From: a virus
Lineage: Duplodnaviria > Caudoviricetes
Virus record (IMG/VR): IMGVR_UViG_3300010338_000470
DNA length: 64,000 nucleotides
Strand: one strand, 5' to 3'
The notes under the pieces are model-generated. The model ran no database searches and was not told where the DNA came from. It worked only from the letters and a program-made list of their open reading frames with translations. Both the position numbers and the translations under genes were made by a program. Of the stretch, positions 6,328 to 62,096 are shown in pieces (position 1 is the first letter of the stretch; every line of letters begins with the position of its first letter).

Positions 6328-7728
6328 CTATCGCTCCGTTGACAGACGAGAATTGTTGAAAGCATGGCGCAACTGAAGATACTTGAGGAAGTTCCCGATA
6401 ACAGGAACCTCCACCCGATCCACCGATCCGTCACCCCTCTCGCTGGTGTAGACAGCGAAGTTCTCAGGGTAAGGGGTGGCTACGTGCTCCATGGGGCTGT
6501 GATGGGGAGGGTTGGCTCCCGCCAGCCTCTCGAAGAGATTCAAATCCTCATTGAGATCCCTAACCCCCTCTTGCGTGAGGTAGGAAACCCTGGCGCATCT
6601 GGCAGCAGAAACCTTCTTGCGTACCTCTAGGTCGAGTGTCTCTTCGTCTGGCTGGATGTACGGAGTGTGCCACTCTCCTTCATGTAGCTCCATTGGGGTG
6701 GAGCTTTCTCGGGCTTCCCGAATGAGTTCTGCTACCACTCTGATCTCTGGCTGAGCGAGGGGGGAGCACCTTTGGGAGAAGAAGTTGTTCCACTCCGTTG
6801 AGGAGATGATGACAGTGTGCCACATCCAAGGTTCAAGAATTCTGTTGGCCACCTGCTTGTGAACCCCCAATTCCTCTGAGAGCCGCCTAGATTCCTCCAC
6901 AGCGGCATCCTTGACCTTGATCCAAGCGTACCTGGCCGCTGCCAACTCCTGTCCACTCAGGGCCTCTGAGGCCTGCATGCCGGGCTTGTTGACACCGAAC
7001 TCAACTGGCATAGCTGTATCCGTTTGAACCCTAGCGAGCTGCTTCTTGACGGGGATAGCTCTAGAGCTAGCGGAATTGCGTGAATTGTGCACCACGAACC
7101 CGTTCGCTACAAAGTTGGGGTAGTCGCCCTCCACCGAAAGGTCAAACGTATGCTCTAGCCCGTGAGCCTCGATGGAGTCGATCGATTTGAAGTCGTAGTC
7201 GACAAACCTGTTTAGCTCCGGGTTTCCTCGGAGCGCCACGACCACCTTACTTCCAGCCGTCAGATCGCCAAGTCGTCGCCACCCGTCAGGGGTAAGGAAC
7301 AAGTGATCGATGGATGTTCGAATCGACCTACTTCCCACCTTGACGGTGAAGGTTTCCTTTTCCCCAGAGTAGATCACGTCTGTGATGCGCGTCAGGGATG
7401 GTTCTAGGTCTTCTTCTGAGACCTGTCGAATGGCGATGGATGCCAATCTGTCTCGCATTGATTGATGATTGGCCGTCGGAGCCAGGCTCTCGGCCCAGAC
7501 TGCTCCGTTGTGCCACTTGTCGTAGAGGTACGACAGCTGATACTTTCTGGAAGTGCCATTAGGTGCTTCGGCCCACACCTCAGACTCCCCAGACAAACAG
7601 AAAACTCTGTGGGTGTTCAATTCCGCCAAGACAAATCGATGCATAGTGGCTTGAACCGTTGTCAAGCGAACCCCTGTGGTGGGGTCGATGCTATCCCTGA
7701 CGACGTGAGCTTCGGGTGTTGTCTTCAA
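6328..7728 (-). CDS. thyX: flavin-dependent thymidylate synthase ThyX/Thy1 with intein
   Basis: ELNTHRVF|SRNSASSRAIP, HKQVANRILEP, SAARCARVSY, HHSPMEH. Confidence 0.92.
   Translation of the reverse strand: MKTTPEAHVVRDSIDPTTGVRLTTVQATMHRFVLAELNTHRVFCLSGESEVWAEAPNGTSRKYQLSYLYDKWHNGAVWAESLAPTANHQSMRDRLASIAIRQVSEEDLEPSLTRITDVIYSGEKETFTVKVGSRSIRTSIDHLFLTPDGWRRLGDLTAGSKVVVALRGNPELNRFVDYDFKSIDSIEAHGLEHTFDLSVEGDYPNFVANGFVVHNSRNSASSRAIPVKKQLARVQTDTAMPVEFGVNKPGMQASEALSGQELAAARYAWIKVKDAAVEESRRLSEELGVHKQVANRILEPWMWHTVIISSTEWNNFFSQRCSPLAQPEIRVVAELIREARESSTPMELHEGEWHTPYIQPDEETLDLEVRKKVSAARCARVSYLTQEGVRDLNEDLNLFERLAGANPPHHSPMEHVATPYPENFAVYTSERGDGSVDRVEVPVIGNFLKYLQLRHAFNNSRLSTER
7084..7599 (-). mobile_element. 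mini-intein in ThyX (172 aa, no homing endonuclease)
   Basis: CLSGES...TSIDHLFLTPDGW...TFDLSV...FVVHN|S. Confidence 0.92.
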
Positions 7729-33640: not shown

Positions 33641-36600
33641 TCAGCCAGACAGGTCGATCTCGCATGCCTCAGTATCGCAGAAGCGGCTATCTGAAGCATC
33701 TGCGGTCTTGCCAGAGTCATAGACGGCCTTCAGGTTCACCTTACGGAGTCCCTTGCGTATACGCTCCGCTTCCTCCGCTGACAACACCTCAAACGGAGCC
33801 TGAGCGTACCCACCTTCGTCCTGTGGCGGCAAGAAGGAGATCGTCTTGAACTGTCCAGCCTTTGAACGGAGAAGAGGGTAGATCTGATCTGCCTCATCCT
33901 TACTGAAGGTCACGGTCACGGATACAGCATTGTCTGCCCACCACATCTGCACAAAGGCAGCCAACTCGGCCTTCTCCCAAATCGAAACTTCATGCTCCGA
34001 CCTCATGTCCAAGCCATCCACGGGAAACTCCGCAACGACCGTCCAATTTGGATCATTCAAGTCTGGTTCAACAAGAAACTTGGACTTCTCCAGAATGGAC
34101 ACCAACGGATCATTCCTATGGAACCTCATCCTACGCAAGAAGACTCCTGCATTCGTAGGCCAGTGGACCCCCGGAGAAGTGCCAGCAAGCAAGGATGTGG
34201 AACCAGCAGGCTTAGAGGTTGTCAAGCGAATGGACTGACGCACTCCAAGCCACTCCGAGTACTGAGTGTCCTTTTCCTTCAGGTACTCGTACCCCTCGGA
34301 CAAGTAATTCTTGAGTGTGTCCCAACCTTGCTTCTCAACAAACTCAGCAGTGCCGGTAGTCGAGACGCCAATGCGTCGATTCCTGACAATGACTTCATTC
34401 GTTTCGGCCCAAGGGGTGGGGAGTAGGGTTACCGTCTTGGCGTACAACATGGCCACCTTACATGTAGCCAACCAGTCATCCATGCCTTCAGCATTATTGA
34501 TGTACGTCTCGGCAAGGCACTGATAGGTCAGGGCATTGCCAAAAACGCCCATGTGCTTCACGGGCTCCGTAAAGCAGAATGTGTCTCTCCCCACATCGAC
34601 CAACTCAACGGAAACGACCTTCTGCTTTCGAATCAATGAGATAGGCCTGCCATCAGGGTGAGCGTTGTTTTCCATGGACCCCACGTCGGGACGGTTCTCG
34701 ACAACCTTCAACTTTGTCGGAATCATCGCGCACTCGTGAGCTGGAATACGCAAGGCGTACAGGTCCCTCGTGCGTCTCCCCTTGTTGGTAATGGCTCCCG
34801 CTGGAGCCTCCAAATGTACTGAGGCAGCGTTCACACCGCAACGCCTCAGCAGAATCTGGGCGTCTCGCAACTTCTTCTCGGAACCATGCAAGATGAGGTG
34901 TTGGGACCGTGGGTTCCTGCGAACGGACCCGTCAGCGTCGATCCATCCAGCCATGAAGTCAGCCACAGAGTCAGCATCCCATTGGAACACTTCATCTGGG
35001 AGGCCCTCGCTGGAGTTCCTAAGCCGTCTGCCCTCTTCACTGGAAATGTACTCGGAGACGTTCACCCTCGTGAAGGGATGCGAATAACCCTCTGGGTGCT
35101 GCCACGCTCTCTCTACTCCCGCTAGTGCTGGGAGTAGGACCTCAGACTCTGGCTCCTGCACGAGGGCTAGCGCCTGGTCTCCATCCATGAACCCGTCTCC
35201 AGCGAAGAACCCCCACTGGTAGGCATGCTCGAAATGCTCCCCAATTGACTTGAACTCCAATGCAAAGTTTGGCAGGTCCATTCCCGGCTCAAGTTCAAGT
35301 GTGGACAGTTTCTTGAATGAGCGCTCGGTGGGGCGCTTAGCTGACCACTCATGATTATCGGTCACATCGAGCTGGCTGCCGTCACTGAGCGTGACCCTGT
35401 AGAGAGCCTTGTTGTGGGCTGCCAGGAAGGGCCTCACCTTCGACCAGGATTCACCATTCCAGACCTCGACCTCCTGATCCACAACATCCTCAATGCGGGG
35501 GGCTCCAGTCTTCGTCTGGATTCGAGTCTCGCCCGAGACACAGCACAATTCATGAGATTCCAGGGGGATCTCAGCGCAATTATGCGCCCAGAGACCATTA
35601 GCATCAAAGGCATGGACGCCTTCAACTGTAGCATCGTAAACCTCTTCGGTTCCATCTGGGTCAATAGCAGCGATAACCGATTCAAATGAATCCCTGTGCA
35701 GTGGACGATTGTAGGCAGCGAGCCTATCCCTAAGCTTGGCTGCCTTCACTGGGTTCCTCATTGGGATACGATCAGCGAAAACGGAGAGGTTCTCCCTTGA
35801 TACAATCAGTTCCCAAAGGGGTTGCCTCTGGTAAAGGGCGCTGCCCCCCCGACCATCAGGCAAGAGGACCTCAGAAGTCTCCCTGCGGAAATAGATCGTG
35901 CTGTTGATTCCAAGGCGTCCAAGCATCCTTTGAGCTGCCCCGAGCATATCCCTGTCAATTGATGTCAGGCGAACGGAAACACCCTTAGTTTGCGTCCCCT
36001 GAATTGATCCATCCGTGTCGAACAGGCCAGCCAGCACGCCAGCCGTGAAATCACTGGACCCCTCTTCGATCTTGTCTGTAATCGTCTTGTTGCCCCTGAA
36101 AACTCCGAACTTGTCGGCCAGGTTAGTCAGTCCAGCAGTACCCAAGCGATACTGGTTAGAAGTCTTGACCCAGCCCTTGAAGGTCGGTCCAACCCCAAGA
36201 GCCTCAACGTCCTCAAGGAGAGTGGCCATAACTGCACCAGACCCATTGTCATGATCTGGCCAGCATGCCAGGTACGCTCTGGCGTCATCGAAAGTGCCGT
36301 CACCAATAAGGTGGCCAAGCATGTAGCCCTCCGATTCTGACCCAGGGCCATCCCAAGAATAAGACCCGTGACGATGCACCTTGATGGCATCGCCAGCCTC
36401 CAAGTCCGCCAGCTCAACCCACTGGCCATCCGCTCGGAGCAGCTGATGATTGTCCGTCAGCCTGAGTTCGCGACCGTCCGTGAACACGACCTTGAACACA
36501 TCCTTTTCACCAGTTTTCCAGAACCCGGTTGGAGAAGCGTACTCTTGACCATCAACTACCGCTGTAAACGGGGAATCCAGAAGGTCTACTACCTTCCTCG

Positions 36601-38209
36601 CCCCATTACTGGTCAGGACCCATGTATCGCCAGTCACGCAAGGGTTAACCCCAGTGACCCTATAGTCCTTGTTGTCGGGAGGATCAGCCAGCCGCCCACG
36701 GCTCCTGGCAACGTCAAGCCAGACAATTCCAGGCTCACCGTTCACGATGTTGGACTCGATGATGTGGGAAAGATCAGTAGAAACTTCGGCCGCAACAGAG
36801 TTGTTGGAATTCCAGCTCCAACCGTCCGGGCCAGTGCGTTCAGCGTTCTCTGGAAGATTCCAGTTCTTCAGGTTGATGTAATCCTCGTCGTCGGGTGACC
36901 CGAGTGCGAGTTCAGCACTGCGACGCGCTCCTCCTGCAACGACTGCCTTTCCAATCAGGTTCTGAATGTCGACAATGTCACGCGAGGTTAGAGGTTCCCC
37001 CTCGCGATCAGAGAGAAGCCTTCTCACTGATTCGTGCAAGCTCTGGAGAGGGCCTGGTCCTGAGGCCGTACCTCCGAAGGTCTTGAGGGGGGCTCCAGCG
37101 GGCCTCACCAAGGAGTAGTCGAACTCGACTGGCTTCTGCCCTGCCAAGAAAAATGTCACCAGTAGGTGTCCCACGGAGTCGGCCCACCCCTCCCTCGTAT
37201 CTGGGACAACAAAAACTTCAGGCTCGCCACTCGGCTCATGAAGGGTGATGTTGCCAGCGCCCTTCGTATCGAACCCAACCCCAATGCCATTCATGCTCAT
37301 GTCCATGAGCCTCACAAATGGAAGGGTTGCTTCGTACTTGGAGTGCGAAGTGATTTTCTCTGTCGAAATCCAGGCGCAGTTTCCTGTGAGAATGTTGCCC
37401 TCGATTACAAATGCAGCTTCATCCGGGACGGTAGCACAGAAAACTTCCGCCCTCCTGCCCGTGCACTCAACATTGACAACGGTCCAGGATTCCTCCGAAG
37501 TCGAGTTAACTCCTTGCTCGTACACCTCCTGAAGTACATGTGCTGGCCTCAGGTCGCGAGTCGAAACCTCTCTGTAGTCAGCGCTGGAACCACCTGATTC
37601 CTGCTTGCCCTTGACGAACCAACGGTGGTTTTCTGTAGTCAGGAATGAGAGGGTCTCTCCCGCCCCCTTGACCGTAACTTCCCATAGCTCCTCCTCTCCA
37701 AAAGAGGAAACTGGGGCTTCAATCCACTTACCCCCCCTACTCAACAGAGTGGGCGTGGTGCCAGAGAGGCTTCTTAGGGTCTTCCAGCCTCTAGTGGTCA
37801 AAGCCAGGGTTTCCCCATCGAAGCAGTTGTACAGGGGGGCTGAGTTGGAATTTCCAACAGTCATCTCTGTGCCCATGGCCCACATGCCTCGACCGGGAGG
37901 GGTCCACTTGAAGTTGAACATCCGGTCGTAAGCGTCCTGGGCAGCCTTCTGGGCCTTGTGGTCATTCCAGGGTGTCCGCTGACCCCTGCACCAATCCTTT
38001 TGGATTGAGAACATGCCCTCGACTACCCTACGGCAAGTTTCGTGCCAGCGCTCCTTGGTCCCGTCATCCTTGATCCTTGAGTACTTGCTGATGTAGGTCA
38101 GTTCCCCTAGGCTCAGGCCTTCGTGGATGTTAAACCCCCACGGAATGGACTTGTTAGCGTACTGCTCAACAAAGGAATCTGAAAGACGAAAGGAAAGGAA
38201 CTCTGACAC
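33641..38209 (-). CDS. nrdJ: class II (B12-dependent) ribonucleotide reductase with three inteins
   Basis: PPGRG, N|C, NP|CAE, NRRIG, SKPAGS, C-terminal FCDTEAC. Confidence 0.93.
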   Translation of the reverse strand: MSEFLSFRLSDSFVEQYANKSIPWGFNIHEGLSLGELTYISKYSRIKDDGTKERWHETCRRVVEGMFSIQKDWCRGQRTPWNDHKAQKAAQDAYDRMFNFKWTPPGRGMWAMGTEMTVGNSNSAPLYNCFDGETLALTTRGWKTLRSLSGTTPTLLSRGGKWIEAPVSSFGEEELWEVTVKGAGETLSFLTTENHRWFVKGKQESGGSSADYREVSTRDLRPAHVLQEVYEQGVNSTSEESWTVVNVECTGRRAEVFCATVPDEAAFVIEGNILTGNCAWISTEKITSHSKYEATLPFVRLMDMSMNGIGVGFDTKGAGNITLHEPSGEPEVFVVPDTREGWADSVGHLLVTFFLAGQKPVEFDYSLVRPAGAPLKTFGGTASGPGPLQSLHESVRRLLSDREGEPLTSRDIVDIQNLIGKAVVAGGARRSAELALGSPDDEDYINLKNWNLPENAERTGPDGWSWNSNNSVAAEVSTDLSHIIESNIVNGEPGIVWLDVARSRGRLADPPDNKDYRVTGVNPCVTGDTWVLTSNGARKVVDLLDSPFTAVVDGQEYASPTGFWKTGEKDVFKVVFTDGRELRLTDNHQLLRADGQWVELADLEAGDAIKVHRHGSYSWDGPGSESEGYMLGHLIGDGTFDDARAYLACWPDHDNGSGAVMATLLEDVEALGVGPTFKGWVKTSNQYRLGTAGLTNLADKFGVFRGNKTITDKIEEGSSDFTAGVLAGLFDTDGSIQGTQTKGVSVRLTSIDRDMLGAAQRMLGRLGINSTIYFRRETSEVLLPDGRGGSALYQRQPLWELIVSRENLSVFADRIPMRNPVKAAKLRDRLAAYNRPLHRDSFESVIAAIDPDGTEEVYDATVEGVHAFDANGLWAHNCAEIPLESHELCCVSGETRIQTKTGAPRIEDVVDQEVEVWNGESWSKVRPFLAAHNKALYRVTLSDGSQLDVTDNHEWSAKRPTERSFKKLSTLELEPGMDLPNFALEFKSIGEHFEHAYQWGFFAGDGFMDGDQALALVQEPESEVLLPALAGVERAWQHPEGYSHPFTRVNVSEYISSEEGRRLRNSSEGLPDEVFQWDADSVADFMAGWIDADGSVRRNPRSQHLILHGSEKKLRDAQILLRRCGVNAASVHLEAPAGAITNKGRRTRDLYALRIPAHECAMIPTKLKVVENRPDVGSMENNAHPDGRPISLIRKQKVVSVELVDVGRDTFCFTEPVKHMGVFGNALTYQCLAETYINNAEGMDDWLATCKVAMLYAKTVTLLPTPWAETNEVIVRNRRIGVSTTGTAEFVEKQGWDTLKNYLSEGYEYLKEKDTQYSEWLGVRQSIRLTTSKPAGSTSLLAGTSPGVHWPTNAGVFLRRMRFHRNDPLVSILEKSKFLVEPDLNDPNWTVVAEFPVDGLDMRSEHEVSIWEKAELAAFVQMWWADNAVSVTVTFSKDEADQIYPLLRSKAGQFKTISFLPPQDEGGYAQAPFEVLSAEEAERIRKGLRKVNLKAVYDSGKTADASDSRFCDTEACEIDLSG
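34520..35542 (-). mobile_element. intein 3 in NrdJ with LAGLIDADG homing endonuclease and C-terminal Gln (341 aa)
   Basis: CVSGET...VTDNHEW...GFFAGDG...AGWIDADG...ALTYQ|C. Confidence 0.88.
35579..36640 (-). mobile_element. intein 2 in NrdJ with LAGLIDADG homing endonuclease (354 aa)
   Basis: CVTGDT...LTDNHQL...LGHLIGDG...LAGLFDTDG...WAHN|C. Confidence 0.92.
37379..37825 (-). mobile_element. mini-intein 1 in NrdJ (149 aa, ends GN)
   Basis: CFDGET...TTENHRWF...VFCATV...ILTGN|C. Confidence 0.9.
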
Positions 38210-50376: not shown

Positions 50377-51030
50377 CTAGCCAACACGTGGAACGGAGGC
50401 ATAGCGGTCGAGAATGGCTTGCGCCCACTCAACCAGATCTTCGACCCGCTGGCCCCGCTGGTGCGACGTGCACCACAGCTCCAGATTCTCAAGTCGATTG
50501 TCATCTCGAAGTCCATTCTTGTGATGGACGTCTTCTTCAGGCAAAAGGCACCGACCAAGGTGGCGGGCCATCACGTAGCGGTGCTCGAATACCAAGTTGT
50601 GAGGCCCTGTTGCCATGTCGATGAATGGGTCGTCCGGAATCAACCTGCGTCGGATGTACCCTTGACTGGTCTTATGGGTGCCACCCTTCCAGTTCCAGCT
50701 CTTTTCACCTTGGTACTTGCCCGCCTCGTATCCGCCTCGTCGTCGCTGGACGCCATGATTCTCCAGGACGTACCAAATTGACTTCGGGTTGGCGTCTAGG
50801 CGCTCACCGATTGAAGCTAGGGTTTCGCCAGCCTCGTAGGCATCGCAAATGTCGAGCTGCTGCGCCAGCGAGGGCTTAAAGGGTGGTCGTGTCACTCTGT
50901 GAGGCGACAGGCCAGGGATTCTCTTGCACGCCTTACAGTAGAACTGAAGCCCATCCTTGGATGCCGCCCTGCGGTGGAACTCTGAACGGGGCTTCGTCTC
51001 CCCACACTTCCTACAGCTCTTGGACTCCAT
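50377..51030 (-). CDS. HNH homing endonuclease with Zn-ribbon and HTH
   Basis: WNWKGG, EHRYVM, VHHKNGLRDDNRLENLEL. Confidence 0.9.
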   Translation of the reverse strand: MESKSCRKCGETKPRSEFHRRAASKDGLQFYCKACKRIPGLSPHRVTRPPFKPSLAQQLDICDAYEAGETLASIGERLDANPKSIWYVLENHGVQRRRGGYEAGKYQGEKSWNWKGGTHKTSQGYIRRRLIPDDPFIDMATGPHNLVFEHRYVMARHLGRCLLPEEDVHHKNGLRDDNRLENLELWCTSHQRGQRVEDLVEWAQAILDRYASVPRVG

Positions 51031-51478
51031 TCTTGGAGTCTAGCACAAGATCGGGCAAGCAGATCCCGCGCAGGTGATCCATCTCGTGCTGGATGATCCT
51101 TGCCTTCCAGCCCGTGGCCCCCTCCTGGTGTCTAACGCCTTCAACGTCAGTATAGGTCCACGCTATCTCCGTAGACCTCTCCACTGAGAACTCCTTGCCT
51201 GGAACAGAAAGACATCCCTCCCCCGCCCTAACAGTCGAGTTGGCAGAATAAAGGATCTCGGGATTCAAGGCAAGAAAGGACTCCCCGGAATCGTGAAGAT
51301 AGAAGGCCCTAATGGGCATCCCAACCTGTGGAGCGGCCACAGCAACGCCACCGAGGACGAGACAGGCAAACCGAAGGTCAAAGGCAAGCTTTTCTACATC
51401 GACAGCCTCAACATCTACTGGACTGGACTTCTCGCTCAGTATCCGATTCGGATACTTGACCACCCTCAGGACCTTCAC
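51011..51478 (-). CDS. def: peptide deformylase
   Basis: GVAVAAPQVG, EGCLS, QHEMDHL. Confidence 0.93.
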   Translation of the reverse strand: MKVLRVVKYPNRILSEKSSPVDVEAVDVEKLAFDLRFACLVLGGVAVAAPQVGMPIRAFYLHDSGESFLALNPEILYSANSTVRAGEGCLSVPGKEFSVERSTEIAWTYTDVEGVRHQEGATGWKARIIQHEMDHLRGICLPDLVLDSKNGVQEL

Positions 51479-51900: not shown

Positions 51901-52222
51901 TTAGCTTAGTTGAATGGCTACTGAGAAGTTGTGAAGGACAACGCAAAGGTAGACAAGAGAAATGACGAGTAGGCCGAAACCTATGAAGTCCGAATCCAGC
52001 TTGTACCCCGCCCAGACGATCAACCCGACTGCCAGCATCTTGATGCAGATGGCAAGCATCGGGGAGTGAATGAACAGGTCTGCAACGGGGTTGGCCTCAG
52101 ATCCACCGAAGGTAAAGACGAGGTGAGTGCTGAAAACATCCAAGATGTTCAACACTGCCAAAGTGAACCCTCTGGCCAGGATGGATTCCTGTGTTCTAGA
52201 CCTCAAGGCTTCCAACTCTACT
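51901..52222 (-). CDS. small membrane protein (DUF5658-like; start approximate)
   Basis: LNILDVFST...GGSEANP...K motif; 3 TM. Confidence 0.65.
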
Positions 52223-52233
52223 CCTTTGATGAG

Positions 52234-52315
52234 TGCGAGTGGTGGGACTCGAACCCACACATTTTTCAATAGCGGGGTTTAAATCCGCCGCGTCTGCCTA
52301 TTCCGCCACACTCGC
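52234..52315 (-). tRNA. tRNA-Leu(TAA)
   Basis: Leu D-arm GGCGGAATAGGCAGACGC; long variable arm. Confidence 0.88.
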
Positions 52316-52316
52316 T

Positions 52317-52395
52317 TGGCCCCCCCGGTAGGACTCGAACCTACAACGGACGCTGGGTAGAAGCCAGCCGCTCTAATCCATTGAGCTACGGAGGG
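52317..52395 (-). tRNA. tRNA-Arg(TCT)
   Basis: GCTGG-CTTCTAC-CCAGC. Confidence 0.88.
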
Positions 52396-52590
52396 AAGAT
52401 TCAGATTCTTCGACTAACGGCCCATCAGTAATCCCAGGTAACCTGGGGCTATGGACGACGCAACGAAAATCCAGTTCGACCACAAAATCCACTTCAGCTG
52501 CAAGTGGTCGAATGTCTGACGCCATCAAGCATCCACACTCTGGATGTCGCGATTGTTTCCTGAGCACGCAGTGAACCATACCAGCGACAC

Positions 52591-52890
52591 CTACGACTGT
52601 AGAAGATCCAAAACTTCTCCCAGGGGGGCTGCACCCACAATGCGAGCGACCTCTTGCCCTTCCTTGAGAAACAGGAGAGAGGGAACCTTCTGCACCTTGA
52701 ACCTCTTGCAAAGACCTATCTCCATCTCCGCGTTTACCTTGAACAAGGGCGTCCCAGACGTGGCCTCAGCCTCTTCCAGGACAGGATTCATGGCCTTGCA
52801 GGGCGAGCACCACTCGGCCCAGAAGTCAACCAGGACAGCGTCCTGGGTCTTGATGCTTTCATCAAATGAGTCAGAAGTAAGTTCAACCAT
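52591..52890 (-). CDS. trxA: thioredoxin
   Basis: VLVDFWAEWCSPCK. Confidence 0.92.
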   Translation of the reverse strand: MVELTSDSFDESIKTQDAVLVDFWAEWCSPCKAMNPVLEEAEATSGTPLFKVNAEMEIGLCKRFKVQKVPSLLFLKEGQEVARIVGAAPLGEVLDLLQS

Positions 52891-52966
52891 GGTGCTTGAT
52901 GCAGGAATCGAACCTGCGGCCTCTTCCGTGTCGAGGAAGCGCTCTAACCGTCTGAGCTAACCAAGC
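52890..52966 (-). tRNA. tRNA-Val(GAC)
   Basis: CTTCC-TCGACAC-GGAAG. Confidence 0.88.
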
Positions 52967-52971
52967 ATTAG

Positions 52972-53032
52972 TGGAGGAGCAAGGGAATCGAACCCTCGTA
53001 GATCGTCATCATACGTTGCCAAACGCTCCCCA
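52972..53032 (-). ncRNA. about 60-nt mini tRNA/tmRNA-like element (T-arm and acceptor only)
   Basis: TGGGGAGC...ACGAGGGTTCGATTCCCTTGCTCCTCCA. Confidence 0.5.
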
Positions 53033-53033
53033 A

Positions 53034-53397
53034 GGTGGAGGCGGAGGGAATCGAACCCTCGTCTTCCAGAGTGTACCACACGATTGTACAACCATTCCAG
53101 ATAAAGCGTTGGTCGCTTCGCAGCAAGCTGCTACCCGGACTTTCCCGAAAGTCGACGGTCTTTCCCGTTGTCAGCAGTCTTTCCAGCTGTCCTCCCCTAC
53201 TTCTGTTGCCAGGCTGTAGGAAACAGGCCCCGTGCGACCTCGCGGCTCACGTTGACTCTAGCCACTCAACCGTTAGGTCAGGCGGCTAGAGCGAACTGCT
53301 CGTTGGCGGTTCTTGTTGGTTCCCCGTTTAACGAGTCTGAGAAACTCGGGTTGAATCTAAGTGCTACAGATTCCGAAATCGAAACCTTGTCGCCCCC
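53034..53397 (-). ncRNA. ssrA: tmRNA, tag (A)ANEQFALAA
   Basis: 5' GGGGGCGACAAGGTTTCGA; 3' GGTTCGATTCCCTCCGCCTCCACC with G3:U70; tag GCC AAC GAG CAG TTC GCT CTA GCC GCC TGA. Confidence 0.95.
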
Positions 53398-53419
53398 TAG
53401 CTTCCGACAAGCGGAATAG

Positions 53420-53501
53420 TCCCCCAAGAGGGAGTCGAACCCTCACGCCCGAAGGCACCCGGTCCTAAGCCGGGCGCGTCTACCAGTTCCGCCATCGGGG
53501 G
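53420..53501 (-). tRNA. tRNA-Leu(TAG)
   Basis: Cloverleaf with long variable arm. Confidence 0.9.
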
Positions 53502-53504
53502 AAA

Positions 53505-54095
53505 TGAGTGTAGGGGAGCTAGGTTCAGGCTCCCCTGTCGCCACACTTTACCGGCCTGCTTAGACCTCGTGGCTTTGATCACACATCCAGGAACTACCCT
53601 TGGTTGTTATGGGGTTTGTGCGTATCCCCTTAGCCCCTACAGACTTCTTGGCATCAGCCCTGGCCGGGGCCTCATACCAGGGGGAGCGGAAATCTCCCCC
53701 TTCCCTTTACCAACGAACCTTACTCAAGGGTCCGTCCTGGGATATAACCCTACGTCTGTAGGTTAGCTCAGCATTTCCGTTTCACAGTTCAAAATGTGAA
53801 ATTCCCTATGCGTAGCGCTGAGCAGGCAGGGAGCACACCTCCTTGCGAGAGATGAGCTTTGCCACTCCGCTTTACCACCCCGATCACCCTGGCAAGGCTT
53901 TTCGAGGCTCTCTTTTCACATGCAGTGCCAGCCACATGCTCCCCCGGATTCCAGAGATGCTATCCCCGCTAAGGGTCCCTGGCGTCCGGTTCGTGGAGAT
54001 TTGGACCTAACGGCCCCGCAGAATCCTGGGAAGGATCCCGCGTATCGCAGGTTGCCCTGCTATCCGGTACTCCTCAACCGTCTAACTTTTCAAGT
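53505..54095 (-). ncRNA. large (about 590 nt) structured ncRNA, family unknown
   Basis: No credible ORF; many local and long-range helices; own promoter upstream. Confidence 0.65.
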
Positions 54096-54137
54096 GTCGT
54101 CCGTGGCCCCGTGGGGGCAACGGAGATAACTCTACCA
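54087..54137 (-). promoter_or_regulatory. extended -10 promoter (TGGTAGAGT), hairpin and boxA-like CACTTGAAAA
   Basis: Motifs read directly upstream of the ncRNA, tRNA-Leu and tmRNA. Confidence 0.45.
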
Positions 54138-54307
54138 TGTCAGTCTTCAACTTTCAAGCGAAGGCTCCAATGTTAGCTGCATCACCAAGGCTTGCAGCCA
54201 AACGCTCAGGGCATCCAGCATGCCGCCATCAAGTGGCGTTCCGTGCAGAAGTGGATGCACTAGGCTCAGGAGGCCCAAGGCCACCAAAAACAACTTGTAG
54301 GTTCGCA

Positions 54308-54382
54308 TGGAGCCGGTTGCAGGACTCGAACCCGCCCACACTGCTTACAAGGCAGTTGCTCTTCCTGATGAGCTAAACCGGC
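54308..54382 (-). tRNA. tRNA-Thr(TGT)
   Basis: ACTGC-CTTGTAA-GCAGT. Confidence 0.88.
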
Positions 54383-54388
54383 AAAACT

Positions 54389-54480
54389 TCCCAAGATGGG
54401 GAGGACTCGAACCTCCTCCTCCCCCCACCAAAGCTGACATGCAAGGGGGGTGTGCTTCCAATACACCACATATCCTGGGA
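54389..54480 (-). ncRNA. tRNA-like element with 19-nt anticodon loop and extended acceptor stem
   Basis: D and T arms intact; loop CTTGCATGTCAGCTTTGGT. Confidence 0.6.
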
Positions 54481-54694
54481 GCAGGTAAAGGATTTCAGAG
54501 ATGGTTCCACTGGAACATCACAATCCTCCCCCTTCCCTTACATCACAGCTAGTCCTGATTGCCTGTTGGGCCTTTAACCCAACTGGTTTCTTGTGCCTGT
54601 CAGCGTGATACAACCAGTTTTCACTGAGGTTCTTGAAAGGGTTCAGACTGGTATTTGCTCCAGTCTCCCCACCTCCTACTACCCGATACCAAAG

Positions 54695-54766
54695 CACCCT
54701 CGGAAGGACTCGAACCTTCAACTTCCTCGTTCGTAGCGAGACACTCTTCCATTGAGTTACGAGGGT
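54695..54766 (-). tRNA. tRNA-Arg(ACG)
   Basis: CTCG-CTACGAA-CGAG. Confidence 0.88.
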
Positions 54767-54771
54767 TTAAG

Positions 54772-54853
54772 CGGAGCGAGAGGGATTCGAACCCCCAACC
54801 CTTGACGGGCCACCGTTTTCAAGACGGATTGGCACCCCAATGCCGGTCGCTCC
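54772..54853 (-). tRNA. tRNA-Ser(TGA)
   Basis: Long variable arm; G73. Confidence 0.85.
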
Positions 54854-54894
54854 AAACTGGCTGTCGCCAGTCTACCTTGGCGATCTACGGTTAG

Positions 54895-54979
54895 CGGAAC
54901 ACCGAGGACTCGAACCCCACCCCTTGCGGGGCGCATTCCTTAGCAGGGAAGCGCGGCAAGCCTTACCGCTTGATGTTCC
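54895..54979 (-). tRNA. tRNA-Ser(GCT)
   Basis: Long variable arm; G73. Confidence 0.85.
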
Positions 54980-55059
54980 AGAATGAATGCGCTGCCAGCG
55001 CTTTCCGTTGTGCACCGAAGTGCATGCAGGCCGACGGGGCACCACCATAAAATCTAGGC

Positions 55060-55294
55060 TTCGATAGTCGGGGGCGATACCCATCACTGATGGGTCATCC
55101 CACACCAACTTGAAGAAATCTACACAATCATCAACAGAACGTCCCTGAAGGTACATCTCTATACACTTGTGGACGAGAGTCCCAAAGGATGCTGCTGCCG
55201 ATTGAAGTTCTACAACGTCAGGATGCTCTTGTGCCAGCTTGTACTGTAGATTGCACTCTTGAAACTTTTTGAGTAGCGACGGATTGAACTTCAC
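55060..55294 (-). pseudogene. N-terminal fragment of a PD-(D/E)XK RecB/Cas4-like exonuclease
   Basis: FNPSLLKKFQECNLQYKL...AASFGTLVHKCIE; the frame then runs into a tRNA-Ser gene with no nuclease motifs. Confidence 0.65.
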
Positions 55295-55602
55295 CAAAAA
55301 TCCCTCGCTGTGATAACTGATTCCCATCCATCGTATTCAGAAATGAGATAAGGCCCGTCAACCTCTACCACCTCTAAATCATCAGCCCCACCCGTGTGAA
55401 AGTGTTTCAAACCCAAATCAACCATCATCTGGATGATCAGATCATGGTGAGGGCCACTCCTTTGGCATAAATCCTTTGGGTTGCCACCCGACTCAATGAA
55501 GTCAATGATAGGCCGGTACTCAGCGATCTCTTTCCGCTTATCATCTGGTGCCCAGGTCGACCATCCAGCACCATAGCCTGTACTTACTAAAATCTTCGTC
55601 AC
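55291..55602 (-). CDS. conserved phage hypothetical protein (GYGAGWSTW...EYDGWE)
   Basis: Recurrent phage motif. Confidence 0.75.
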   Translation of the reverse strand: MTKILVSTGYGAGWSTWAPDDKRKEIAEYRPIIDFIESGGNPKDLCQRSGPHHDLIIQMMVDLGLKHFHTGGADDLEVVEVDGPYLISEYDGWESVITARDFW

Positions 55603-55901
55603 ATCTTCTCCAAAAGAATCAACAGAAACTGGATCTCAGCATCTGAACACTCCAACACATTCACGAGCCTAGCGAACACGTTCGCTGCCGGGAAGCGAGT
55701 CGGAGTGATCGTGATATCGAAATCACGCATGCTCCCATCCTCTAGAAGGAAGCTCAAGGAAACATCCGTTGGATACGGCTCCTCCGTTCCAGCCCATCTC
55801 TCGTTGATGTACGTCTCGCTGAATCCAAGGAAAGCCTTCTGAATCACCTCGGCAACATCACTACTGAACAGTTCCCCGTCGTGCGATAACTTGTTTCCCA
55901 T
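55599..55901 (-). CDS. hypothetical protein
   Basis: TGCTACGTT-6 nt-ATG. Confidence 0.6.
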   Translation of the reverse strand: MGNKLSHDGELFSSDVAEVIQKAFLGFSETYINERWAGTEEPYPTDVSLSFLLEDGSMRDFDITITPTRFPAANVFARLVNVLECSDAEIQFLLILLEKM

Positions 55902-55983
55902 GCCGCCAACGTAGCACCCACTTCTACGTATAGGGCAGCCCTCCCCATCCTTGAGGTCGAGAGTGGTGCTACAGAACGTTCAG

Positions 55984-56066
55984 CGGTAAGAGGAGTACTC
56001 GAAACCCATGCCTAGCGACACGATCCGTTTTCGAAACGGTCCCCAGGCCTCCTGGGTTCACTTACC
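55984..56066 (-). tRNA. tRNA-Ser(CGA)
   Basis: CCGT-TTCGAAA-ACGG; long variable arm. Confidence 0.8.
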
Positions 56067-56070
56067 GGAG

Positions 56071-56157
56071 CGGAACACCGAGGACTCGAACCCCATGCCA
56101 TTTTTCAGACACCAACTTCTTTCCAGGAAGTGCCGACGCCTAGTCGGTTGATGTTCC
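56071..56157 (-). tRNA. tRNA-Ser(GGA)
   Basis: ACTTC-CTGGAAA-GAAGT; long variable arm. Confidence 0.85.
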
Positions 56158-56231
56158 ATATGTTCGCTTCATCCTGCGCTGATACTCCCGTTGGTACTCA
56201 CGCTCTACTGCTGGATCTGAGAATGGTATGA

Positions 56232-56591
56232 TCAGGCAGCCACCCGACGACTCAAGCCGGTGGTGTCGCCACCTCGCTTGTGACGCTTGGCGTCAGCGAA
56301 GGTCCTGACCGGGTTCCTCTTACGGATAGGGCTACACCCACAGGAATCGAAAAGGCCACGTGTCGTGCCATTGTTGGTCATGACATACAGCTTCTTCCAT
56401 TGACCCTTCTGGCTCTGGCGTGGGGCTGTAAAGTCGCGGCCCATGTTGAGCCCCTGCTTCTGACACTTCAGACAACACATTGTGCCGGTCTGGGTATGCT
56501 CACCATACTGGGAGCGCGGACCTTTCCAGGCGATGCGACAATCGAAACAAGCGTAAACGCTTCGATAGTAGTTGTAACTGTAGCGGCACAT
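56232..56591 (-). CDS. Zn-binding hypothetical protein
   Basis: ACFDCR...CLKC...MGRDFTAPR; TACTGT-6 nt-ATG. Confidence 0.7.
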   Translation of the reverse strand: MCRYSYNYYRSVYACFDCRIAWKGPRSQYGEHTQTGTMCCLKCQKQGLNMGRDFTAPRQSQKGQWKKLYVMTNNGTTRGLFDSCGCSPIRKRNPVRTFADAKRHKRGGDTTGLSRRVAA

Positions 56592-56783
56592 ACCACTACA
56601 GTATCACATTCGGTTTCAGGCGATAGCCTTAACCTCCAAGACCTCCACTTCTGCCAGCTCATAATCTTCAAGCTGGCAAAGAATCCCGTATCTGATGACG
56701 GCTTCGTCAGGAGTCGAAGCCCTGACGACTATCGGCCCATTCGGGCCATCCAAATGCCATTCCATGGCTATTTCCTTTCCGGA

Positions 56784-58253: not shown

Positions 58254-59174
58254 ATGCCTTACTTGTCTCCCACCCAAGAAGAAATAGACCTAATGACCTC
58301 TCAGCTAAGCAGTCGTCTGGGAGATGCGGAAGCGAGGCTAGAGGCTCTTGAAATCCAAGTAGCAGATTTGCTGAACTCCAGTCAGCCATCCCCGATTACT
58401 CCAACCGAATGGGGTTACAACCTTACCAGCCCCACCAACCTTGAGTCGGTGGCACTCAACTTGGGTGACCCTCAGGTTGTCAGGCTCTTTTTCTCAGGTT
58501 CTCCCGGTTCAGGGGAACCAACCTGGGCTCTGGGTAAAACCGCTATCGTTAGCTTCAAGTTCAACCCGACTCAGGCCTTCCCGGCAGAGAAGCTGCGAGC
58601 CTTCCTGGCTTCCAAGCCAGCCAACGTGAAGGCCTACGTTTGCACCTATCATGAACCAGAAGGCAACATCAGAGCGTACCAATTCACGGCAGCGCAATAC
58701 CGTGACTTCGTCACAGCAACTACTTCCGTATGCCGGGAGTTCGAGAACTGTATCTCAACCCCCATCCTCATGCAATGGACCCTAGAGTCAGCCTCCGGAC
58801 GGAACGTAAACGACTATCTTGAAGGAGTCGAATACGATGTCCTCGGATGGGACGTTTACCCAAGACTAGGAACCATCAAGGACATCCAGGCTCAGCTAAA
58901 GTCCATTCACGACGAATCCGTCAAGAGGGGTAAGCCTTGGCTTATTGGTGAAGTGGGGGCCGTGAAGTACGTCGAAGGACGCCAGTACCCCCGCCCTTCC
59001 TACACTGAAGCAGATCGGGCTGTTTGGATGCTTAACACGGTAGCCCAGATCAAGGCTCTAGCTGTCCAACCTCTGGCGGTCTGCTGGTTCACTTACCCGA
59101 CCGATGGGCACCTCTACACTCTTGAATCAGCTGAGACGCAAAACGCCATGAAGCAAATTCTTGCCAACGGGTAA
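58254..59174 (+). CDS. glycoside hydrolase-like TIM barrel (clan GH-A/GH26-like) with N-terminal coiled coil
   Basis: TYHEPE (acid/base), DVLGWDVY, GKPWLIGEVG (nucleophile); AAGGA RBS. Confidence 0.75.
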   Translation: MPYLSPTQEEIDLMTSQLSSRLGDAEARLEALEIQVADLLNSSQPSPITPTEWGYNLTSPTNLESVALNLGDPQVVRLFFSGSPGSGEPTWALGKTAIVSFKFNPTQAFPAEKLRAFLASKPANVKAYVCTYHEPEGNIRAYQFTAAQYRDFVTATTSVCREFENCISTPILMQWTLESASGRNVNDYLEGVEYDVLGWDVYPRLGTIKDIQAQLKSIHDESVKRGKPWLIGEVGAVKYVEGRQYPRPSYTEADRAVWMLNTVAQIKALAVQPLAVCWFTYPTDGHLYTLESAETQNAMKQILANG

Positions 59175-59175
59175 G

Positions 59176-59526
59176 GTTGAGAAGCCCTGTAGCCGGAGTT
59201 TTGTCATTTAAGACCATCATCCATCTAGGAAGAAACCATCTCCCTCCCCCTCGCGGGGGTGCACCAACCCGGTCATAATGGGCCTGGCCGACCTAGACCT
59301 ATTTGGCTTACTACAGCTGAAGTTTACTCAGCCAGGAACATTACTGCCCTGCTGGGGGTCTCTTACACCCCCTCTTCCACCTACTGACCTGTGCCCTGAG
59401 GGCCATCGGCCGTCCGTTCGCTATGCACTTGTTGTCCTCTCGCGAGGCCCGGTTTAACCCGGCAGCTTTGCCATATGTAGCTCCGAACTTCCTCTACTTT
59501 CGCAGCGATGGTCCAGGCTTCTCAAC
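59176..59526 (-). ncRNA. rnpB: RNase P RNA
   Basis: P1 GTTGAGAAGCC/GGCTTCTCAAC; GAGGAAGTTCGGAGC and ACAAAACTCCGGCTAC P4 signatures. Confidence 0.92.
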
Positions 59527-59986: not shown

Positions 59987-59989
59987 CTG

Positions 59990-60533
59990 ACAGTGATTGA
60001 GGCTCACTGTGGGCCTGAGAACTCTCCTACCCATGGCCTTGGGTCGCCTGATTTACCTAATATCCGACTTGACGGTACTTCCCCGCCCTTTTTCAGGCAA
60101 GCGCACGGATGGAACGAACACCCGCAGGGCCGAGCACATACGATACTACGTAGCTCCCCTCAATGTCGCTAGAGGTTTCTACCATTGTACCCCACCCGCT
60201 ACGCGATTGTGTAGCAAGCCTGGTAGCAACGCATGTGCCGGGTATCGCACATGTTACCCTAGCCGGTTTTTTGTTTTACCATGGATCAGCTGTATACATG
60301 CTCGGGTTAAGAGCCCTCGCCACTGTCCAAGTTCCGTGTGACCTTCACGTTCACGTAGTTGGCTAACGTTCCATGCCCGTTATTTAATATGCTCGTTCAA
60401 GCATAACCAACTACCGCTCTGAGCCTAAGATCTCTTTGAGGTCGGACTGTCCTCACCCTACAGATGTCTTAGCATCCCTGCACTGAACGGACTGGGAGCA
60501 CAACCCGTTCCTGATTGCCCCGAAGGGCTCTCA
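59990..60533 (-). ncRNA. large (about 540 nt) structured ncRNA, possibly GOLLD-like
   Basis: No credible ORF; many hairpins; lies between tRNA-Gln and tRNA-Thr. Confidence 0.65.
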
Positions 60534-60536
60534 TCG

Positions 60537-62009: not shown

Positions 62010-62096
62010 TGGTGCCGGAGGAGGGATTCGAACCCCCTAAGCTCAAAAGCAACTGATTTACAGTCAGCCCCAACTCACCGTCGTTGGCGCTCCGGC
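62010..62096 (-). tRNA. tRNA-Tyr(GTA)
   Basis: GCTGA-CTGTAAA-TCAGT; long variable arm; CCA. Confidence 0.9.

Follow-up and report, generated by a model that had tools for sequence, protein, structure and literature searches.

The 64,000-nucleotide stretch of viral DNA that we analysed, referred to below as the window, holds an ORF-free region between two tRNA genes that, on balance, we take to be the gene for a discrete, stable and highly structured non-coding RNA (ncRNA) of about 550–580 nt. It belongs to an uncultivated activated-sludge phage of about 149 kb that probably infects Acidimicrobiia. The gene most likely lies on the minus strand, and our best reading is that it encodes a large phage ncRNA, new and as yet an orphan, which is a member of neither ROOL nor GOLLD. 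Large, ornate bacterial and phage RNAs are rare. If this reading is true, it would be a third RNA with the genomic habit of ROOL and GOLLD and an unrelated sequence, which would mean that phages invented such RNAs more than once. The RNA comes from a different host phylum, environmental RNA data already show it as a separate piece of high depth, and, being short and easy to transcribe, it would offer a new object for cryo-EM and probing. A second reason for interest is the phage itself, which has an RNase P RNA of its own in the same island, together with a tmRNA and about 36 tRNAs. The gene and its surroundings are laid out as follows.

53540..54122, minus strand, proposed full transcript of about 583 nt, with approximate ends suggested by the predicted promoter start and a closing helix ACACUU/AAGUGU
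53558..54106, most likely minus strand, RNA core, a 549-nt RNA-library contig with 100% identity to the window
54129..54157, minus strand, candidate sigma-70-like site TTGAAA-17-TAGAGT with extended TG (TG-n-TAGAGT), a consensus match only
54308..54382, minus strand, tRNA-Thr(tgt), upstream of the RNA and followed by a doubtful 53-codon ORF (54150–54308)
53419..53501, minus strand, tRNA-Leu(tag), directly downstream of the RNA
53033..53397, minus strand, tmRNA with tag ANEQFALAA, next downstream after tRNA-Leu
59174–59524, minus strand, class A RNase P RNA, full length (model positions 1–367), 145 bits

The evidence that this region gives rise to a separate RNA comes from environmental RNA libraries. 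Six RNA libraries contain part of a 1001-nt query, all of which is contained in the DNA runs. Four RNA runs from four studies, chosen because they contain the RNA stretch, were compared with window positions 52200–55400. Each of them has one contig that is identical (100%) to the window and confined to the ORF-free stretch, although such contigs reveal neither the strand nor the true ends of an RNA.

53558–54106, strand not given by the contig, run X15, word depth 318.6
53570–54070, strand not given by the contig, run X16, 100% identity
53590–54038, strand not given by the contig, run X19, 100% identity
53794–54083, strand not given by the contig, run X20, 100% identity

In X15 the depth of 318.6 compares with 2.4 and 2.0 for the two adjoining contigs of the query stretch; such depths are single values for whole contigs and measure expression poorly. 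The remaining contigs across 52200–55400 have depths of 2.5 to 11.6. In X16, X19 and X20 the RNA contig is the sole contig that is at least 99% identical to the phage. Parts to which no contig of the RNA runs maps, most of the tmRNA among them, were left out of the evidence. We read these data as pointing to a discrete, stable RNA species with a length of at least 514–549 nt. A first-pass annotation, made by eye from the sequence, had proposed a separate ncRNA gene of roughly this size, and the libraries of four studies, in which the RNA appears as a piece of its own, support it. The limits it had proposed, 53505–54095, are slightly misplaced, as the RNA-library contigs extend to 54106 and end at 53558.

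The same annotation had given the RNA its own promoter, and a sigma-70-like site is indeed found just upstream, with a predicted start near 54122. Its position fits the 5′ limit of the RNA contig (54106), which lies 23 nt downstream of the end of the site; we estimate from shuffle counts that a promoter-like match so close by and on the correct strand would turn up by chance in about 1–2% of cases. Taken by itself it is a consensus match only, because such sites are not enriched in the region (8 were found and 9.4 are expected from shuffles).

We propose that transcription would begin at this site, near 54122, and head a unit that continues into the tRNA-Leu and the tmRNA, which were correctly recognized at first pass as the next genes downstream. 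The 3′ end would then be formed by processing. RNase P, for which the phage has its own RNA, would cut at the 5′ end of tRNA-Leu, and exonucleases would trim back towards the body of the RNA, removing a spacer hairpin on the way. The compact multi-helix body may protect the RNA from further decay and so let it accumulate far above its neighbours.

The region is predicted to fold tightly. A 659-nt stretch has a minimum free energy (MFE) of -267 kcal/mol, with z = -4.1 against dinucleotide shuffles. The 583-nt version has z = -2.8 with a cruder shuffle, for which six coding controls of equal length range from -1.3 to +0.4. The fold also bears on the choice of strand. The minus strand folds at -240 kcal/mol and the plus strand at -205.5 kcal/mol, a gap of 35 kcal/mol; 20 of the 181 predicted pairs are G-U pairs, and these 20 become A-C mismatches on the other strand. 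That all of the neighbouring RNA genes are on the minus strand counts for the same orientation. The predicted elements, and the sequence motifs associated with them, are as follows.

54102..54122, minus strand, predicted 5′ hairpin CGU-GCCCC-CAC-GGGGC-ACG, pair probabilities 0.98–1.0, partly inside the RNA contig
53939..54084, minus strand, predicted 5′ domain of five hairpins or arms, with helices that are constant under three end choices and have probabilities of 0.8–1.0
54047–54060, minus strand, GCAA-tetraloop hairpin of the 5′ domain, predicted fold
54017–54042, minus strand, 11-bp hairpin of the 5′ domain, predicted fold
53766..53823, minus strand, predicted hairpin GCUCAGCG/UGCUGAGC around UUUCACA/UGUGAAA, with a less certain outer helix (probability 0.45)
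53634..53764, minus strand, predicted multi-helix junction domain closed by CCUACAGAC/GUCUGUAGG and containing four hairpins, of which one has the loop CGGCCA and one the loop UUAUAU
53512..53536, minus strand, predicted hairpin AGGGGAGC/GCUCCCCU between the RNA and tRNA-Leu, on a separate contig (53381–53534, depth 2.4)
53876–53870, 53711–53705 and 53552–53546, minus strand, three GGUAAAG copies, each just 3′ of a helix

The choice of ends has little effect on much of this fold, with 132 pairs being identical for ends at 54122/53540, 54106/53558 and 54122/53502. The molecule is predicted to be closed by long-range pairings, but these are uncertain (pair probabilities 0.13–0.66). Because no homologue was found, there is no covariation behind any pair and the predicted fold is a thermodynamic one throughout. 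Several multi-stem junctions are present in the MFE fold, and no pseudoknot of at least 5 pairs was found between its unpaired stretches.

All of the pairings picked out by eye at first pass are in the sequence. The GCAGG-GCAA-CCTGC hairpin is found at 54060–54047, GCTCAGC/GCTGAGC at about 53823–53816 and 53773–53766, and inside the latter TTTCACA/TGTGAAA at 53801–53795 and 53786–53780 (all on the minus strand). The long-range pairing CCTACAGAC/GTCTGTAGG, around GGGGGAG/CTCCCCC, lies at 53762–53754 and 53644–53636 of the same strand, with its halves 110 nt apart. Two further pairings come with a qualification. GCCTGCT and AGCAGGC are both present (53827–53821 and 53560–53554, minus strand), but the MFE fold does not use their pairing, and the supposedly terminal AGGGGAGC/GCTCCCCT is present at 53536–53529 and 53519–53512 (minus strand) but falls outside the high-depth piece. 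The hairpin at 53536–53512 is probably a precursor or spacer element: since the 3′ limit at 53558 excludes it, it looks like a spacer that is lost when tRNA-Leu is released.

The three GGUAAAG copies are spaced 159–165 nt apart and are three of only four minus-strand copies in the 64-kb window. A search for internal repeats in the RNA found none and does not explain these copies, and no paralogue of the RNA was found among the other spacers of the island. The palindromic loops CGGCCA and UUAUAU of the junction domain could, as a hypothesis drawn from the folding model, make symmetric kissing contacts; palindromic GGCC and UAUA loops account for 2 of the 14 hairpin loops, which is within chance expectation.

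The proteins of the window are those of a phage, and include a DnaB helicase, an exonuclease, an endolysin with Amidase_2 and PG_binding_1 domains, HNH endonucleases and a peptide deformylase. Two genes carry inteins, ThyX (6328–7728, minus strand) and a class II ribonucleotide reductase (33641–38209, minus strand), the latter intein having a LAGLIDADG domain. Exact look-ups place the window proteins on contigs of 114–151 kb, and the runs that contain the stretch come from activated sludge, wastewater and freshwater. The tRNA island extends from 51.6 to 64 kb, with about 36 tRNA genes, the tmRNA and the class A RNase P RNA all on the minus strand, and genes for the peptide deformylase and for an RF-1-domain protein are close to it.

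An actinobacterial host, probably from the Acidimicrobiia, is where three lines of evidence point together: the tmRNA, the RNase P RNA and a piece held in common with a WhiB-carrying phage. The tmRNA tag pattern occurs mainly in metagenome-assembled genomes (MAGs) of Microthrixaceae, Ilumatobacteraceae, Acidimicrobiaceae and other Actinomycetota, and the phage tmRNA is 77–80% identical to the tmRNAs of those MAGs; this sequence likeness suggests an Acidimicrobiia host and RNA genes derived from it. The RNase P RNA resembles those of Acidimicrobiia (72–81% identity over 70–150 nt). By blastn it matched nothing in 50,697 deposited phage genomes, and for a phage to encode an RNase P ribozyme seems unusual. 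Within the island, 630 nt at 55064–55693 (minus strand) are 98.7–98.9% identical to the WhiB-carrying phage (contigs L015–L018, of up to 63 kb). This piece holds a gene of 103 aa and the first part of a PD-(D/E)XK nuclease gene that is complete in the WhiB-carrying phage (279–659 aa), and its sequence suggests that it moved between phages recently, leaving the tRNA island with a truncated gene.

Where else does such an RNA occur? A blastn search with 11-base words against 50,697 phage records gave, at E <= 10, one 25-nt chance match, and when the flanks were included only tRNAs were matched. Nothing close to this phage lineage was found in IMG/VR or the 50,697 deposited phage genomes. In IMG/VR the endolysin led to one locus (63% identity over the C-terminal half) and the DnaB helicase to identities of at most 45%, while the tmRNA-tag pattern had no match. 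A triple GGTAAAG pattern occurs there at 114 or more loci, none of them RNA-like by blastn, and of two 18-mers scanned for in IMG/VR one gave a chance match in a coding region and the other gave none. Among 5.8 billion protein clusters the thioredoxin has no relatives between about 50% (49%) and 100% identity, and a 469-aa protein has no relative at all. For the peptide deformylase three relatives of 46–50% identity were found, all on short contigs, and a single metagenome scan with this protein was overrun by bacterial deformylases. No look-alike stretch was found in the other DNA windows that were compared.

Searches of candidate host genomes gave a similar picture. Against 401 Acidimicrobiia genomes, blastn with the RNA returned chance matches only, in what is a weak search, as the RNase P RNA used as a control was recovered from 11 of 151 genomes. 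We also built a covariance model, R1, from the single sequence of the junction domain (53634–53764; 131 positions, 38 pairs). It had no match in 151 Acidimicrobiia genomes, 151 Actinomycetota genomes and 41 genomes from the family of genome G001, a search that had no positive control. Because both types of search are weak, the RNA is better described as not found in the genomes searched than as absent from them. The lack of homologues reflects an orphan phage lineage and not variation that breaks the helices.

Strains of the phage itself are available, and in ten strain contigs the RNA is identical over 799 nt. These contigs differ elsewhere, with HNH and other insertions or deletions and with tracts of identity down to 99.0%. 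In a comparison of window positions 54930–56608 and 50408–51120 with contigs L003 and L010–L013, the strains differ by the presence or absence of segments in or next to the island, among them an HNH gene (50377–51030) and a block at 54930–56608. The SNPs fall in tracts, with 24–38 per 500 nt in places. The tRNA island is plastic and recombining. Because SNPs are rare and clustered, an identical RNA is weak evidence of selection, and we have not counted it as such.

One true, if distant, relative was reached by walking from the deformylase relatives. This is L414, an 11.3-kb Logan contig that has five genes in common with the window, among them an endolysin gene (59% identical) and a deformylase gene (50% identical), and keeps its order of tRNA-Gly(tcc), tRNA-Cys and deformylase. 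It carries RtcB, 12 tRNAs, the peptide deformylase, an N6/N4 methyltransferase and the endolysin. A DUF5658 gene is present on the sister contigs L019, L413 and L415 and not on L414, and contig L021 is also of this lineage. The island of L414 has no gene-free gap of more than about 280 nt and no match to R1, so the RNA is absent from its readable part. As recovered, this island is smaller, and has neither tmRNA, RNase P RNA nor a large RNA. The phage of the window has an expanded segment in which the RNA, the tmRNA and the RNase P RNA lie, and because the syntenic island, in its recovered part, has no such RNA, the RNA appears to be dispensable for the L414 lineage.

This absence, together with the lack of any known homologue, would fit an alternative in which the RNA is a by-product, that is, a long structured 5′ leader of the tRNA-Leu/tmRNA precursor that is freed by processing, has no function and persists through tight folding. 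Its place directly upstream of tRNA-Leu and the tmRNA, on the same strand and with no terminator in between, is just what such a leader would have. However, a leader needs far less than a length of about 550 nt, over 20 helices and two GCAA loops; the depth is far above that of the adjoining contigs, the RNA has its own promoter-like site, and it is unchanged in strains whose island is otherwise rearranged. We consider a functionless leader unlikely. Small stable RNAs are known to be co-transcribed with phage tRNAs and to be released by RNase P and other processing; the tRNA cluster of T4, for example, yields the stable species 1 and 2 RNAs of about 100–140 nt. Compared with spacers and leaders of that type, the present RNA is four to five times longer and has a promoter-like site of its own.

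If the RNA does have a function, it might act in trans as a decoy or sponge, either as a monomer or within a ribonucleoprotein, that sequesters some host factor; a nuclease, RNA polymerase, ribosomal subunits and a protein of host defence are examples. Its very high word depth in RNA runs and its location in an island of translation-related RNA genes are compatible with this role, as are an 8-nt hairpin loop, UGAGGAGU, with a Shine–Dalgarno-like AGGAG, and the threefold GGUAAAG. There is also a precedent in GOLLD, which is reported to pull down ribosomes (bioRxiv 10.1101/2024.12.08.627333). Against this, the motifs are short and could be due to chance, no partner has been identified and no gene for an RNA-binding protein was seen adjacent to the RNA; a decoy or sponge strikes us as quite unlikely.

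For the large phage ncRNA that we favour, the mechanism that seems to us most likely, put forward with low confidence, is a ROOL/GOLLD-like one: the RNA would form an assembly made of RNA only, or mainly of RNA, and in infected cells this assembly would act on the translation machinery. What favours this role is the island of tRNA, tmRNA and RNase P RNA genes, the nearby genes for a deformylase and an RF-1-domain protein, and the size and apparent abundance of the RNA. A bolder and rather speculative version is that the RNA founds a third class of giant phage RNAs of tRNA islands, unrelated to the other two, and that it has a defined architecture and self-assembles into an RNA-only multimer or cage. 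A multimer of this sort would explain how the RNA can persist in wastewater RNA at a depth far above that of the rest of the phage.

The comparison with ROOL and GOLLD deserves some detail, as a likeness in size and context to these RNAs had been suggested at first pass. Both are encoded by phages and prophages, often close to tRNA islands; they are large, have no known function and form RNA-only cages (bioRxiv 10.1101/2024.12.08.627333; PMC5737381). ROOL RNAs average 581 nt and can equal 16S rRNA in abundance (PMC5737381; bioRxiv 10.1101/2024.12.08.627333), and they have about 10 highly conserved nucleotides (PMC5737381). GOLLD RNAs are mostly longer than 800 nt, rise during lysis and sometimes carry tRNAs in a linker (bioRxiv 10.1101/2024.12.08.627333).

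The suggested likeness holds for size (549–583 nt, where ROOL has 581) and for the setting beside phage tRNAs; family membership does not follow. None of the 4227 Rfam families matches at gathering scores. No match appears at E <= 5 on 18 kb, nor when 831 bases are searched at E <= 10 with the most permissive of the available filter settings. The families without a match include ROOL, GOLLD, OLE, raiA, HEARO, group I and II introns, 6S, SRP and rRNA fragments, so the check proposed at first pass with the ROOL, GOLLD, OLE and intron models came back empty. By this operational test, the RNA is in no described family.

With ROOL (RF03087) the present RNA has in common that it is a large ncRNA of a phage, lies beside tRNA genes and may be abundant; ROOL has many multi-stem junctions, and several are predicted here. 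Its length, 549 nt for the contig and about 583 nt for the proposed transcript, is close to the approximately 580 nt of ROOL, and the phage proteins around it and the 36 tRNA genes nearby make for a similar setting. However, the ROOL covariance model (574 positions, gathering score 99.1 bits) has no match to it at any threshold tried; the same family had no match in any control genome. The structural plan of ROOL, with six multi-stem junctions and three pseudoknots, is backed by covariation, whereas that of the present RNA comes from a predicted single-sequence fold. The host ranges differ too, ROOL being found in rumen and other members of three phyla. Finally, ROOL and GOLLD form homo-oligomeric RNA-only cages (octamers or 14-mers, the ROOL cage being octameric); a multimer of our RNA would be hypothetical. 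GOLLD is likewise a phage or prophage RNA near tRNA islands, sometimes with tRNAs inside or adjoining it, and is expressed in lytic growth. It differs in being mostly longer than 800 nt, where the present RNA has about 550–580 nt, and in a conserved 3′ domain, the covariance model of which gave no match.

Might the RNA nevertheless be a very diverged ROOL, or GOLLD, that the Rfam models miss? The agreement of its length (549–583 nt) with the ROOL average of 581 nt and the similar genomic setting would be accounted for, and with only about 10 highly conserved nucleotides a distant member could slip through sequence-based filters. We regard this as improbable, given that neither the wider scans nor the search at E <= 10 on 831 bases with permissive filters produced a match, and that GOLLD RNAs are mostly above 800 nt.

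OLE is another large (about 600 nt), ornate and abundant bacterial ncRNA. Its gene lies in the chromosomes of anaerobic Firmicutes and is linked with the oap genes. The RNA described here differs from it in its setting, a phage tRNA island, and the OLE covariance model has no match. Nor is there a match to the group I or group II intron models. No ORF lies inside the RNA, and, contrary to the setting of an intron, it sits between complete tRNA genes and not within a gene.

DNA can occur in RNA libraries, and contigs are no proof of transcription. The library contigs could then be an artefact of DNA carry-over, or derive from another abundant element that shares the 549-nt piece. Carry-over would cover the flanks equally, yet in X15 these have depths of 2.0–2.4 and the RNA contig one of 318.6; because this hundred-fold step falls inside one query stretch, DNA carry-over cannot account for the contrast. 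As for another element, no loose ends lead into other sequence at the limits of the RNA contig, DNA contigs run through these limits unchanged, and all DNA data sets that contain the stretch have it with its phage flanks. An artefact is, in our judgement, extremely unlikely.

The first-pass annotation had seen no credible ORF and had named a decayed protein gene as the alternative that would undo its claim. Between tRNA-Thr (54308–54382) and tRNA-Leu (53419–53501) the longest internal minus-strand ORF has 48 codons, from a GTG start, in agreement with the first statement. Gene callers give a 69-aa antisense ORF on two contigs, which we consider spurious, and, just upstream, the doubtful ORF of 53 codons (54150–54308), which they give on 16 contigs, is the sole member of its cluster and matches nothing in Pfam or PHROGs. 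These calls are what a decayed gene or a small-protein mRNA could be built on, and we reject that idea as extremely unlikely, as the minus-strand frames are rich in stops, ORF fragments of the region on either strand have no match in Pfam or PHROGs, and a search of the 69-aa ORF against 1.84 billion representative proteins gave low-complexity matches only.

The island holds some further RNA-like features. A stretch of 549 nt between tRNA-Thr and tRNA-Gln (59987–60535, minus strand) is also poor in ORFs and folds well (z = -3.3 and -3.4 in two tests); it has no Rfam match at E <= 5 and no sequence likeness to the first RNA. Two tRNA-like elements, at 54393–54475 and 62013–62096 (both minus strand), have scores of 32.6 and 37.2 bits against the tRNA model of Rfam and are not called by ARAGORN. 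A spacer of about 210 nt between tRNA-Arg(acg) and an odd tRNA-like element (window 54473–54693, minus strand) has its own 222-nt contig in X15, at a depth of 11.6 where most neighbours have 2–4, and may be another small stable RNA.
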